Source of the DNA: Acidobacteriota bacterium | GTDB lineage: Bacteria > Acidobacteriota > Vicinamibacteria > Vicinamibacterales > CAVVIG01 | Assembly: GCA_046728115.1 (NCBI GenBank) | Contig: JBKPDW010000172.1 | Coordinates: 454-64,453 of the forward strand | Direction: 5' to 3' | Length of the DNA: 64,000 nucleotides | Shown: positions 36,072-40,019 of the stretch, piece by piece | Layout of the letters: each line of letters starts with the position of its first letter | How positions within the stretch are numbered: the first letter of the stretch is position 1 | The notes under the pieces: model-generated | Told to the model about the DNA's origin: nothing | The model's database searches: none | Seen by the model: the letters and a program-made list of their open reading frames with translations, nothing else | Position numbers and translations under genes: made by a program

Positions 36072-39000
36072 TTATGGTTGTACTGTCACGTCATCCGTCT
36101 TCTGGGATCGAAGCATGATGATTCCTATCCCGCCCCACTCCCCAACAATTCGCTCTTCAGTCACTGGATAGCGCGCGCACAGCTCCGACCAGACGCGCGA
36201 CACACAGCACCCAGCCTGCGCATGCCAGTCGGAGTCCGCGATGTCGTGCAGCGCGACCAGGCGCGGCCCGCGTGTAAGCGAGAACTCGACGTCGTTGTGC
36301 GCGCCGCGATAGCCGTGATCGCCGTCGACGAACACGGCGTCGTATTGCGGCCCAAGGCGATCGCGAGTCGCCGCCGCGGCGGAGTCACCGACGACGAGAT
36401 CGATCAGCTGCGCGAACTGCCGCCGGGCGTCGTCCAGCGACGCGAGCAGCTCGGGACGCGACTTCTCGTCGACAGCGGTGATCCGGATGTCGCGGCCGAG
36501 CGCGCGGAAGCGGCGAGCGACGTGCCATTCGACGCCACCGTGCATCGAGCCGATGCAGAGCAGGCTGCGCGGCTGTGCCTCAACGAGCCGATCGAGGAAC
36601 CAGGCGAACTCCTCGGGCTGCTGCTCGAGCCGCGGCACTTCGAATCCCTCGAACGGCGCCGGGGCCTGCAGCGAATCGGGAGGAAGCGGCTCCGCGCGAG
36701 TCGCGCTCCACGCAGCCAGCTCAGCCTCCGCCACGGTCCAGAATTCCTGGTGATACGGCAGCTGGCGCAGATCGTCCATGAACAGACAACCGGTCTCATC
36801 GCGCCGGAAGTTGATACCCGGCCACGCCTCGACGCAGCCGTAGAACTCCCCGAGGCGCCGAAGATCGCGCGCGAATACGAACGCGTGGCGCAGCCAGAAG
36901 AACGTGCCACTGTAGTGCCAGTCGCCTAGATACTGGTGCACCCGGAAGCGGCCCTGCATCTTGAACGAGCCGGTCATCGCGTAGTGCTGAAGCTGCGTGC
37001 GCACCGTCAGCCAGTCGTCGAGCGCGACGCGATACTGCGTCTCGGCCCATCGCCGCACCGGCTCGGGAACCGATGGCTCGTACTTCACCCCCTTGGCGTG
37101 CGCGTAGAAGGTCACTTCGTTGGGATCGAGCGACCGCACCGCCTCGAGCATGCCCGGGAAGGTGACACCCTCGGCAGCCGGACCGTTCCGGGCGACGACG
37201 AACCTGCAGCCATGGCCGTCGAACATGCGCTGCACCTCGTCGGGATGTTCGGATCGGTCGTCCTGGACGATGCCGACGATGCGCCGGCCGTTGAAGAGAT
37301 CGATGCGCGTCAGCAGCTGCTTGACGTTCCACCGCCACATCTGTCCGCGCACGGGCCAGACGTGATAGAGCAGATTGCGGGCGGGCGGGGCGGTGAACGG
37401 CAGCACGTCAAGGCCGGGACGTGGGTGCCCGTTCGGATGCACCCGAGACGATGCCGGGGCGTGCGCCGCCGACAGATCGCGCAGCGCGAGACCGCGAATC
37501 TGCAGCTCGCCCGCGGTCACTGAAATGACGCTCAGCCCGCTCTGCAGCAGGTGATCGGCAACGCGCGCGGTGCGCCGGCCGTTGATGTACAGCTCGAGGC
37601 ACTGGTCGACCCAGCGCAGGCGGATCTGGCACCACGTGCGGCGCGGAATCCTAACTTCCGCGAACACGTGCGTGTGGCGCGCGAGATAGCCGTGCGCGGG
37701 CGTGCACACGAGGTGGTACGAGTTCGCGTCGGGATCCTCAGGGGACTGATGGTGAATCTTGGCGATGAAGTGCGCGTCGCGGTCGACCAGCGCCATGAAC
37801 TCCACTTCGACGTCGTTCGCGGTCGAGTCGCTGACGAGCGTCGCTGCCTCGGCTCCAGCCGCGGCCAAGATCATCCCGTCCGGCGAGGGCGTCACCCGGC
37901 CGCCGCGGCGGATCGTCCAGCCATGGACCGTCAGCGGCGCGGGCGGTGGCGGAACATCGAGGGCCAGGTTACGAATCGTTGCGCGGCCATTGGTCACACC
38001 GACGAAACACCGGCCCGATGCGAGCGACGCATCGGGGCGCCGGCAGATCTCGCGGCCGTCGATCGCCAACCGCAGCTCGCCGCCGCTCCAGGCAATCTCG
38101 ACGCGCTGCCAGCGGCCGCGCGCGAGTTGCAGCGGCGCCAGCACGGTGGAGTGACGCGCGAGATGCCCGACGCGGGGCGTCGCAATCAGGTGATACGAGT
38201 TGGCCCGCGGCTCGGCTGGTGCCTCGCAATGGATCTTCGCGATGAAGTGACAATGCTCATCCAGCCACAGGTCGAACGCCAGACGCACCGCCTCGAACGA
38301 GCCGCTGCTGGCAAAACCCGACTCGCGTCCCTGTTCCGCGGCGAGACAGATGTCCTCTCCATCACGCGTGATGATGGGCCGGCCGACCGTCTCCCATCGG
38401 TCCGGCGCCCACGCCGGTTCCTCGACCGCGCGCGCGAGCGCCTCAACCGGCCGTGTCTCCGCCATCGTCACTGCGATCACCTCTTCAAGACGAGCCGCGT
38501 AATCGTGCTTCGTCAACCTGGCGCGGCTGTCGTCGAGCAGCCGCTGGAGACGCCCGGGATCGTCGAGCAGCGCGCGGATCGCGCTGGTGAGCTCCTCGGC
38601 GGATTGAAACGTCGGCACATCGGGAAACATCGCCGCGAGCGCCGGCCTCGACTCCGACACGATCAGAGCGCCGCAGGCGAGAGCCTCGAACACCCGCGGG
38701 TTCAACGACGTCGGGCATACGGCCTCGCGATTGAAGTGGTGCACCGAGCGGAAGACGTTGATCACAATCTTCGTGCGCTGGTAGAGCCGCGCGGTCTCCT
38801 CGGACGTTGTCCGGGGCACGATCGTGAAACGCTTCAGGCACGACGCTTGCCATGGGCCGCCGACGACGTACGACAGCAGTCCTGCCTCGGCGAGGCGCAC
38901 GAGGTACTGCTCGCGAACGGGATTATGTCCGCCGATGAAGCCGACGTCGTAGTCGCGCACGCCGCTGGAATCGCAGTGCAGCCGCGGATCGAAGCAGACC

Positions 39001-40019
39001 GGGAGCGGGTGCGCGTTGACATGCCGCGAGATCGTGGACGGATCGTTCACGAACACGGTGTCGAACGCGCGCGACCACCGGGACGTGTCGTCCACCTCGT
39101 ACGGCTCGTCGAGCAGCCACACAGCCGAGCGCACGTTGGGAAAACGGCACCAGCGCTGCACGAAGCGCCGCCCGTGCACGACAAAGAGCAGATCGGGACG
39201 AAACCGATCGACCTTCTGTGGAAGCAGAGCGTCGTCCCAGTACGCGTGCTCGGCGGAGATGCTGAGCGTGGCGGCTGCCTCGCGCAGACCCGTCTCGAAC
39301 ACGGTGCCGCAGGAGAGGAAGCGGTAATGCACGAAGAAGACGCGGCGCGCGACGGCGTGCGCGGCGGCAGGCCTAGTCGACGCCGACTCGCAAGGCCGCG
39401 CAGCCACAGGTTCGCCATCCCCCAGCCATTCGTCGAGACTCGCGCGCGGCAGCGAGGTGAGCCGGCTGACGGGGCTGAGGTTCGCGAGCTCGATGCCCTC
39501 GTCGCGGCAGGCCGCGGCGAGCGCGCCGTATTCGCGATCGATCCGGGCGAGCTGCCCGGTCAGCGGATGGCGACCCGTGCGGCCAAAGAAATGATCGTTC
39601 TCGAAGTCCACGCCGATCACGCCGATGCGGGCGGCCCCCATGTAGCGCGCGAGGCTGATCGCCACGTAGGGCGAGTTGTTCGTGTAGTCGAGGCAATCGT
39701 CCGCGGCGCGGCCGGTTCCGGCGCGTCTGCCAAGCCGGAAGCGCACAAGGCGCGGATGCGCGACAGCGAGCTGCGAGAAAACGGCCTTTGCCCCGGAGGT
39801 CTCGACATAGGCGTAGCGCTCCGCCGTGAACTGGCGCCGTTCGTTGACGACGATCAGGTAGTCCGGCGTGAACAGCCGGCCGACGTCGTTGACACCGATG
39901 GTCACGAAGCGTTCGGGCCGGCGCAGCTCTCTCAACGAGACGCCGCAGCCGCACACGATCACCGTCTCGCCGCGATGGCGATCGCGATAGCCGGCGAAGC
40001 GCGCATCGGCCGTGGACAT
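36072..40019 (-). CDS. Multi-domain 1315-aa protein: DUF115/MAF-like transferase, CgeB-like glycosyltransferase, two LamG-like domains, an unknown domain, and a class I SAM-dependent methyltransferase
   Basis: ORF track gives 36072..40574. I moved the start to ATG 40019, because the upstream 185 codons overlap the fibre gene. Domains by eye: VIVCGCGVSL...IGVNDVG...GVIGVDF (about 39400-40019); VGFIGGHNPVREQYL...LNPRVFEALACGALIVS (about 38470-39350); two HFIAKIH...NSYHL...LARH domains (about 37960-38400 and 37480-37930); LLCIGSMHGGVEW...AVFVDGDHGY...LHDI (about 36072-36700). Confidence 0.8.
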   Translation of the reverse strand: MSTADARFAGYRDRHRGETVIVCGCGVSLRELRRPERFVTIGVNDVGRLFTPDYLIVVNERRQFTAERYAYVETSGAKAVFSQLAVAHPRLVRFRLGRRAGTGRAADDCLDYTNNSPYVAISLARYMGAARIGVIGVDFENDHFFGRTGRHPLTGQLARIDREYGALAAACRDEGIELANLSPVSRLTSLPRASLDEWLGDGEPVAARPCESASTRPAAAHAVARRVFFVHYRFLSCGTVFETGLREAAATLSISAEHAYWDDALLPQKVDRFRPDLLFVVHGRRFVQRWCRFPNVRSAVWLLDEPYEVDDTSRWSRAFDTVFVNDPSTISRHVNAHPLPVCFDPRLHCDSSGVRDYDVGFIGGHNPVREQYLVRLAEAGLLSYVVGGPWQASCLKRFTIVPRTTSEETARLYQRTKIVINVFRSVHHFNREAVCPTSLNPRVFEALACGALIVSESRPALAAMFPDVPTFQSAEELTSAIRALLDDPGRLQRLLDDSRARLTKHDYAARLEEVIAVTMAETRPVEALARAVEEPAWAPDRWETVGRPIITRDGEDICLAAEQGRESGFASSGSFEAVRLAFDLWLDEHCHFIAKIHCEAPAEPRANSYHLIATPRVGHLARHSTVLAPLQLARGRWQRVEIAWSGGELRLAIDGREICRRPDASLASGRCFVGVTNGRATIRNLALDVPPPPAPLTVHGWTIRRGGRVTPSPDGMILAAAGAEAATLVSDSTANDVEVEFMALVDRDAHFIAKIHHQSPEDPDANSYHLVCTPAHGYLARHTHVFAEVRIPRRTWCQIRLRWVDQCLELYINGRRTARVADHLLQSGLSVISVTAGELQIRGLALRDLSAAHAPASSRVHPNGHPRPGLDVLPFTAPPARNLLYHVWPVRGQMWRWNVKQLLTRIDLFNGRRIVGIVQDDRSEHPDEVQRMFDGHGCRFVVARNGPAAEGVTFPGMLEAVRSLDPNEVTFYAHAKGVKYEPSVPEPVRRWAETQYRVALDDWLTVRTQLQHYAMTGSFKMQGRFRVHQYLGDWHYSGTFFWLRHAFVFARDLRRLGEFYGCVEAWPGINFRRDETGCLFMDDLRQLPYHQEFWTVAEAELAAWSATRAEPLPPDSLQAPAPFEGFEVPRLEQQPEEFAWFLDRLVEAQPRSLLCIGSMHGGVEWHVARRFRALGRDIRITAVDEKSRPELLASLDDARRQFAQLIDLVVGDSAAAATRDRLGPQYDAVFVDGDHGYRGAHNDVEFSLTRGPRLVALHDIADSDWHAQAGCCVSRVWSELCARYPVTEERIVGEWGGIGIIMLRSQKTDDVTVQP

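Follow-up and report, generated by a model that had tools for sequence, protein, structure and literature searches.

The chlorovirus PBCV-1 encodes a soluble three-domain enzyme, A064R, that builds and methyl-caps the glycan of the capsid (PMC9614988). Its first domain (D1) is a GT-A glycosyltransferase, the second (D2) is a cation-independent rhamnosyltransferase without recognisable homology to glycosyltransferases, and the third (D3) is an S-adenosylmethionine (SAM)-dependent methyltransferase. The latter 2-O-methylates the rhamnose at the end of the capsid glycan, and antigenic variants arise by mutation of these domains (PMC9614988). By analogy, this is the closest functional precedent that we can offer for the gene studied here, which encodes a 1315-aa modular enzyme inside an extracellular contractile injection system (eCIS) operon. 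The gene lies on a stretch of 64,000 nucleotides of contig JBKPDW010000172.1 of an Acidobacteriota bacterium (assembly GCA_046728115.1), hereafter the window. A064R and the window enzyme are both soluble, particle-associated and multi-domain, and in both a glycosyltransferase-type domain of no recognisable sequence family, cation-independent in A064R and possibly so in the window enzyme, is followed directly, and in the same order, by a class I SAM methyltransferase. A 638-aa protein, of the same length as A064R and possibly an orthologue of it, is among the best viral structural matches of the GT-A domain of the window enzyme. Yet, A064R has neither the MptE-like N domain nor the GT-B domain nor the LamG repeats, and its acceptor is an N-glycan on the capsid of a eukaryotic virus. 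The likeness drawn here is one of domain layout.

Bacteria and phages provide further comparisons. Mycobacteriophage glycosyltransferases were reportedly described by Freeman et al. in 2023 as thought to decorate the phages' own structural proteins. Where the genes of these enzymes lie by structural genes, their products are thought to modify phage structural proteins (PMC11256854). The eCIS locus is similar in that an element derived from tailed phages carries glycosyltransferase genes beside its structural genes. However, the enzyme families are others, eCIS are not viruses, and phages practically lack the family of the window enzyme: a tblastn search of 50,697 phage records gave weak partial single-domain matches at most. 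No plasmid in the plasmid collection carries the family. CgeB (PF13524), a glycosyltransferase of Bacillus spore-crust maturation, is a single-domain protein from a spore-coat locus, whereas its counterpart in the window forms one of the six modules of an eCIS-linked protein. Finally, the Afp18-type toxins are also encoded in eCIS loci and have a glycosyltransferase activity, which is a prediction for the window enzyme. But these are toxins of a single activity, injected into eukaryotic cells and provided with N-terminal loading signals, whereas the window enzyme combines several enzymes and is leaderless.

Work on eCIS has so far centred on structural proteins, fibres and cargo. The literature that we searched (including Chen 2019, Geller 2021, Danov 2024, a 2025 metagenome survey, a 2026 fibre catalogue and a 2023 review) contained no description of such an enzyme, as the original prediction from the sequence had supposed, nor of particle glycosylation. 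The only trace that we found is in rows of a supplementary table of Pfam enrichment by Geller et al. 2021 (PMC8213781). There, Methyltransf_24 is listed for 6 eCIS genes in the class 'Other', without remark and without significant enrichment (odds ratio 3.9, q 0.08), and Glyco_trans_4_3, an unrelated glycosyltransferase family (Geobacter), has an odds ratio of 34 in eCIS operons. In Geobacter sulfurreducens, the gene GSU0991 (Glyco_trans_4_3 and Glycos_transf_1) is two genes downstream of Tail_P2_I, after a gene encoding an HHH_5 domain (PMC8213781). Other eCIS lineages may have recruited different glycosyltransferases. The individual domains of the window enzyme are ordinary; what is new is a dedicated, modular glycan enzyme linked to eCIS, akin to the systems by which flagella, phage virions and the capsids of giant viruses are self-glycosylated. 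We give an even chance to the reading, the likeliest in our view, that it is a soluble cytoplasmic glycan synthase, a dedicated but optional accessory of the eCIS, which decorates a protein of the particle.

A six-module enzyme encoded in an eCIS operon

The gene occupies positions 40019..36072 of the minus strand, from an ATG to a TGA at 36074-36072. The stop codon of the upstream fibre gene (43768..40031) is a TGA at 40033-40031, and 11 nt separate it from the ATG at 40019. The list of open reading frames (ORFs) also holds an entry with a TTG start at 40574 that runs into the fibre gene; the N-termini of homologues match residues 1-20 of the shorter protein instead. Nineteen relatives of 1296-1390 aa cover 98-99% of the enzyme at 49-62% identity. 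These end-to-end homologues and the uninterrupted frame rule out that the enzyme consists of several genes broken by sequencing errors, an artefact that had been considered from the start. At the junction between fibre and enzyme, no site resembling a promoter or terminator came up in a simple scan, and between 31 and 44 kb of the window such sites were no more numerous than in shuffled sequence. All eCIS genes identified by Pfam scans of the window share the enzyme's strand. Frame and annotated neighbours thus agree with what had been proposed, one polypeptide encoded within the eCIS operon on the strand of the structural genes: the window holds a single intact gene inside a complete eCIS operon.

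We count six modules where five had been proposed, namely three of transferase type, a methyltransferase and two LamG-like domains. An NCBIfam scan of the whole protein matched no named family. Residues 1-205 (39405..40019) are a Rossmann-like domain, hereafter the N domain. Two of its motifs are invariant: the glycine loop G-C-G-x-S, which follows the first strand, and G-x-N-D (G42, N44, D45). The label given to it originally, DUF115/MAF-like, stands as far as a weak similarity to the MptE-like family PF01973 (the former DUF115/MAF_flag10, of the Maf superfamily) runs through the enzyme family: 34 of 37 N domains match this model, with a best E of 3.3e-5, and no other model matched consistently. 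It does not stand as membership, the window domain scoring 16.5 bits (E 0.007) against a gathering cut-off of 34.6. On this sequence evidence we consider the domain a remote homologue of PF01973. It differs from the Maf enzymes also in lacking a flagellin-binding architecture and in having no nonulosonic-acid genes nearby. PDB sequences searched with whole-family and N-domain profiles yielded no relative of the domain, and the Foldseek search with a model of residues 1-545 was dominated by GT-B matches, so that the signal of the N-domain fold was swamped.

This AlphaFold2 model has a predicted local distance difference test (pLDDT) score of 89. It shows the N domain (1-200) as a separate unit, which a disordered linker (203-221) joins to a GT-B glycosyltransferase of two Rossmann domains (226-530; 38430..39344). 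That the latter is CgeB-like was correctly foreseen. PF13524 (Glyco_trans_1_2) scores 75.8 bits over residues 379-515 (cut-off 25, E 4e-21) and is above cut-off in 22 of 22 family members; databases list relatives as 'CgeB family protein'. The top 50 Foldseek matches are nearly all GT-B, mostly of the GT4 type (E down to 1.8e-9), with sucrose-phosphate synthase, the methylmannose-polysaccharide (MMP) mannosyltransferase 7qsg, BshA, MshA and PimA at the top (E 1e-9 to 1e-6). Two LamG/concanavalin-like repeats follow, at residues ~545-700 (37920..38387) and ~701-866 (37422..37919). The tandem repeat is certain (38% identity over 138 aa, E 2e-29), whereas in the window the Pfam matches that would name it stay below cut-off (Laminin_G 19.3 vs 26.8, 3keto-disac_hyd 15.2 vs 22.9); other family members reach E 5.7e-7.

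Residues 866-1125 (36645..37424) correspond to a region of about 230 aa that initially could not be placed. It matches no Pfam glycosyltransferase family, but its AlphaFold2 model (pLDDT 95.5) has the GT-A, or nucleotide-diphospho-sugar-transferase, fold. The PDB matches found by Foldseek include GlcAT-S/P, DPMS, ArnC, SpsA and GtrB (probability ~1, TM-score 0.4-0.46), and likewise nucleotidyltransferases of the same fold. Predicted viral structures (BFVD) match better, at E 3e-10 and TM-scores up to 0.74; they are uncharacterised proteins of Caudovirales and cyanophages, and glycosyltransferases of giant viruses. The DxD motif was not found after the fourth strand, where there is an invariant Y-x-H-A-K-G-V. 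The model is compatible either with a cation-independent GT-A-like enzyme or with another nucleotide-sugar-binding enzyme. The formerly unplaceable domain has thus been assigned a fold, and a GT-A domain without DxD followed by a methyltransferase is the layout of A064R. The last module, residues 1126-1315 (36075..36644), is a class I SAM-dependent methyltransferase, in agreement with the initial assignment: PF13578 (Methyltransf_24) matches residues 1156-1249 above cut-off (28.5 vs 26.3 bits, E 3e-6), as it does in 19 of 22 family members, and the motifs IGSMHGG and AVFVDGDHGY are present. In the PDB, the family profile finds O-methyltransferases of the YrrM type as well as spermidine synthases (E 0.002-0.01). 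Each catalytic module of the family carries many invariant residues.

Linkage of the family to eCIS loci

We surveyed 156 non-redundant loci of the family, fetched with the family alignment, of which GTDB genomes supplied 76 and JGI metagenomes 80, and searched their flanks by tblastn with the eCIS proteins of the window and of two other loci. The loci come from Beta- and Gammaproteobacteria, Acidobacteriota, Nitrospirae, Azospirillum, Brocadia and Dormibacterota. There are eCIS genes in the flanks of 101 of them, giant ORFans instead in 19, and neither in 36. When both flanks are at least 5 kb long (73 loci), these numbers are 57 (78%), 11 and 5. Given the few query sets, the 78% is a minimum where divergent eCIS are concerned, and it describes the flanks, not eCIS elsewhere in the genome. 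The association of homologues with injection-system loci, on which the original prediction had been staked, is therefore found, and the survey rules out that the enzyme is a chance neighbour or hitchhiker of the eCIS.

Three positions recur within eCIS loci. In 31 loci, the window included, the gene is directly behind the DUF6519 fibre; in 54 (up to 60 if one includes loci that also show fibre or sheath genes) it follows an AAA ATPase and then a DUF4157 protein; in 16, including those of Azospirillum and Acidobacteriaceae, it is upstream of the sheath. The gap to the upstream gene is small or negative, with a median of ~16 nt after the fibre. In 13 loci, mostly of the layout AAA ATPase, DUF4157 protein, enzyme, a gene for a ~340-aa TPR-repeat protein is immediately upstream, and 11 of 12 gaps after it are at most 69 nt. 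Such loci are, for example, L004:8982-10004, L192, L194, L216, L221, L223, L234 and L240. The TPR protein could be a substrate adaptor. Most members of the family are co-oriented and closely spaced with the other genes of eCIS loci, and the enzyme is an accessory dedicated to eCIS. It is an optional accessory, not a core component, because in the reverse survey only 2 of 80 DUF6519-fibre eCIS loci, taken from many phyla, carry it.

These positions bear on two other explanations. The first, proposed together with the original prediction, is that the enzyme is itself a very large glycosyltransferase cargo, loaded in the tube and injected to modify molecules of the target cell. The window and many other loci (54+) do have the gene in the 3' variable region by DUF4157 genes, the usual place of eCIS toxins, and Afp18-type glycosyltransferase toxins are known eCIS-associated effectors (PMC10598620). 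But the gene precedes the sheath in Azospirillum and Acidobacteriaceae. The AlphaFold2 model has no disordered leader of ~50 aa at the N-terminus either: a folded domain begins at residue ~8-18, with a first helix at 8-11 and a first strand at 19-23, and pLDDT is below 50 at residues 1-4 only. Three transferase modules and a methyltransferase resemble a biosynthetic assembly line more than a single-hit toxin, its sequence identity between phyla is still 45-60%, every module having invariant residues, and no small immunity-type gene is found behind it in the window or in the homologue loci with listed genes. Besides, Geller et al. classed Methyltransf_24 as 'Other', not as a toxin. We consider the cargo explanation quite improbable.

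The second explanation makes the DUF4157/eCIS_core protein or the cargo, rather than the particle surface, the substrate of the enzyme, e.g. a toxin kept inactive or marked for loading by the AAA ATPase. This would account for the commonest layout, in which ATPase, DUF4157 protein, sometimes the TPR protein, and enzyme follow each other with gaps of at most 35 nt in many loci. In the window, the DUF4157 gene is behind the enzyme and was apparently imported together with the 3' part of the enzyme gene (see below). Yet, the enzyme directly follows the fibre in 31 loci and is ahead of the sheath in 16, and DUF4157 is nearly universal in eCIS, which makes adjacency weak evidence. We regard this explanation, too, as improbable.

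The giant ORFans that take the place of eCIS genes are conserved and fall into two sets. The first, G1 (L017:14017-23653, L019, L022, L075, L076, L079), consists of a ~2000-aa and a ~1200-aa protein. The second, G2 (L041:19-9927, L038, L064, L068, L078, L162, L188, L241, L242), is a compact cluster of three small genes and of genes encoding 650-1210-aa, ~100-aa, ~160-aa and ~2350-aa proteins; in Microbulbifer (L241) the cluster is without the enzyme. Considered as divergent contractile injection systems, both sets gave no Pfam, PHROGs or PDB-sequence match, and no sheath gene was found. The giant ORFans could be substrates of the enzyme or parts of an unrecognised machine.

Module exchange and the operon around the gene

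BLASTP and tblastn module maps show that the constant core of the family is the N domain with the GT-B domain. The rest varies: the LamG-like repeats occur in 0-3 copies, and one finds a GT2 domain, the pair of GT-A and methyltransferase domains, or combinations of these modules. Behind the GT2 domain there is usually a gene of its own for a ~259-aa product (QIDDDV motif, no Pfam match). Some members have extra GT2 or GT92 domains at the N-terminus. A search with residues 1-530 among 1.84 billion cluster representatives found 178 clusters at E <= 1e-30. The N domain is the common anchor of the family, because more than 100 of these clusters share it alone, in proteins of 200-1973 aa. An unfused form is found after the DUF6519 fibre of an eCIS at L243:9549-12645. 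A gene of 151 aa comes first, then an N-domain protein that stands alone (218 aa, with 65% identity to the N domain of the window), then a different GT4, a 656-aa protein of the Glycos_transf_1 family.

The window seems to have captured one exchange of modules. The closest eCIS loci to that of the window belong to uncultured beta- and gammaproteobacterial metagenome-assembled genomes. In eight sister loci (L001, L002, L012, L016, L021, L165, L167, L169) the structural proteins are 63-90% identical to those of the window, and an intact gene of the GT2 subtype directly follows the fibre. Over residues 1-300 the window enzyme is 53-84% (mostly 60-80%) identical to the enzymes of sister loci and 40-69% to those of the GT-A/methyltransferase subtype. 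The order is then inverted: 62-68% against 66-74% for residues 301-350, 46-60% against 54-68% for residues 351-450, and ~30% beyond residue 450 against 33-52% for residues 451-550. Sliding-window and per-module identities place the approximate junction at residues ~300-350 (38970..39122).

A decayed remnant of a second gene of the family is found at 31215..32823 on the minus strand, downstream of the DUF4157 gene. It includes a LamG fragment, a GT2 domain (PF00535, E 2e-13) and the start of the partner 'o259' gene, and was detected by tblastn with the 934-aa (frames -2/-1/-3) and 259-aa (frames -2/-3) proteins of L021. The remnant is readable by several changes of frame only and lacks the first ~545 residues; the intact genes of sister loci share 71-82% identity with it. 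Some of the frameshifts are possibly sequencing errors, but the absence of the 5' 545 codons cannot be. The simplest reading of these sequences is that the window gene is a recombinant, the homologous recombination having taken place close to the invariant motif EPYEVDDT (residues 305-312). The resident gene would have lost its 3' two-thirds to a segment of the GT-A/methyltransferase type, the DUF4157 gene probably coming along with this segment, and the displaced 3' part of the resident gene would now be decaying. We also considered that the C-terminus of the fibre and the enzyme travel together as a cassette and rejected it: full-length relatives of the fibre carry the other enzyme subtype.

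The DUF4157/eCIS_core gene (33870..35924, minus strand; PF13699, E 1.5e-31) is the last intact gene of the eCIS. An internal methionine at ~35699 is probably its true start, rather than the listed TTG, and its product has a HELSH sequence (HExxH motif) and a C-terminal part of ~400 aa without Pfam match. The bin that contains most of it, 34-36 kb, has the lowest GC content of the window, 0.609 compared with 0.67-0.70 in the operon. About 3 kb downstream there is a sigma-54 activator, i.e. an enhancer-binding protein (29840-30892), and ~5 kb beyond it an NAD-dependent sugar epimerase/dehydratase (24301-25350). These could be a regulator and a supplier of sugar nucleotides, or neighbours without relation. 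Further away, at 19534-22866, is an outer-membrane protein with OMP_b-brl_4 and CarboxypepD_reg domains, a type that we take to be typical of Acidobacteria.

Upstream of the fibre, the rest of the operon extends over 43792..62642, always on the minus strand. In the direction of transcription, Pfam scans identify the sheath (62642..60990), the gp19 tube (60974..60447), the Pvc16_N cap protein (58992..57664), the AAA ATPase (57667..55751), CIS_tube (54912..54238), the OB domain of the spike (52738..52229), gp25 (51894..51529) and Baseplate_J (51532..49046). A 987-aa baseplate gene (49049..46086) and a P2_I-like gene (46089..43792) complete this part of the operon. The genes of the cap and of the ATPase (55751-58992) are thus in mid-operon, between tube and baseplate genes, unlike in relatives such as L004, where the ATPase gene is close to the operon's 3' end.

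Candidate acceptor and proposed function

From the domain folds, operon membership, family-wide eCIS linkage, modularity and recombination described above, we infer catalysis, an acceptor, an order of steps and a biological role in particle stability, masking or target range. The MptE/Maf-like N domain and the GT4-type GT-B domain would start and extend a glycan on a particle protein during cytoplasmic assembly. Maf family enzymes O-glycosylate flagellin (PMC11339370). The feature shared with them would be the glycosylation, in the cytoplasm and before export, of the subunit of a large extracellular assembly. The GT-A domain without DxD would then add a further sugar, which the C-terminal methyltransferase would O-methylate, and the LamG-like repeats may serve as substrate-binding or spacer modules. 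Exchange of the C-terminal modules, GT2 with its partner gene against GT-A with methyltransferase, would change the glycan, the window having caught one such swap.

The fibre encoded just upstream is a prime candidate acceptor, because it adjoins the enzyme in 31 loci and in L243, although this choice is a guess. In the window it is a 1245-aa protein (40031..43768, minus strand) with a DUF6519 domain (PF20129, E 9e-68) and a BNR beta-propeller (PSII_BNR, E 8e-22). DUF6519 is also called 'eBAP5', the baseplate-attachment domain of eCIS tail fibres (PMC12923769). More generally, a protein acceptor is favoured because the N domain is Maf-like, because the TPR partner is recurrent and because no genes for lipid carriers, flippases or exporters adjoin the enzyme in the homologue loci with Pfam-labelled genes. 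Modification of the fibre or particle is the one of the three roles suggested originally that fits best.

Several observations weigh against such a decoration of the particle. Particles clearly do not need the enzyme, which so few DUF6519-fibre eCIS loci carry (the 2 in 80 given above) and which is missing from loci whose fibres are 56% identical to that of the window. Some 15% of the well-flanked members adjoin giant ORFans and ~7% stand alone. The structural proteins of the window have no convincing Ser/Thr-rich tract as acceptor, and the Maf-like assignment of the N domain is under the Pfam threshold. Furthermore, soluble multi-domain enzymes of the WbdA/WbdD type, combining glycosyltransferase and methyltransferase, can act on lipid-linked glycans, such as the O-antigen, at the inner face of the membrane.

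This last point leads to a third explanation, close to the receptor decoy of the original prediction, in which the substrate is a glycan in the envelope of the producing cell itself. The enzyme might act at the cytoplasmic face of the membrane on intermediates of lipopolysaccharide, exopolysaccharide or capsule. It would thereby hide the producer or its debris from the producer's fibres, for self-protection or against re-adsorption of the particles, or create a decoy, like phage seroconversion enzymes. The neighbouring fibre has BNR/Asp-box propeller repeats and is potentially glycan-binding, the shuffling of modules resembles serotype variation, and some members of the family are alone or near other loci: in L244, an exosortase/Bac_transf cluster is ~6-9 kb from a truncated N-domain gene. 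Yet, the enzyme has no transmembrane segment (the maximum Kyte-Doolittle average over 19 residues is 1.4), and genes for an initiating lipid-carrier transferase, a flippase or an ABC exporter are not beside it in the homologue loci with Pfam-labelled genes. The TPR partner and the Maf-like N domain suggest a protein acceptor, and the tight translational coupling is with structural or cargo genes. Modification of the envelope is a plausible rival, though in our opinion an unlikely one.

The decoration of particles can be put to a direct test, the family being almost confined to eCIS operons and having cultured carriers in Variovorax, Aquabacterium, Ramlibacter, Pigmentiphaga, Halochromatium and Azospirillum. 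If true, it would bear on the stability and host range of the particles in nature. It would also bear on the engineering of eCIS as delivery vehicles, where surface chemistry, antigenicity and retargeting are at stake, and on how one annotates the variable 3' region, in which such genes might pass for toxins. In addition, the giant ORFans that adjoin the remaining members may form an unrecognised machine, likewise served by the family.

The sequences suggest that eCIS particles, or their cargo, may be sugar-coated. Tentatively, and with somewhat more doubt than belief, we propose that in many bacteria of soil and fresh water the eCIS particles bear a coat of glycans, capped by methyl groups and variable between strains. 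Its maker would be a modular enzyme, encoded in the operon, that exchanges its C-terminal modules by recombination. If so, this coat would be a 'serotype' layer of eCIS, tuning the stability of the particles, their self-avoidance or their range of targets.

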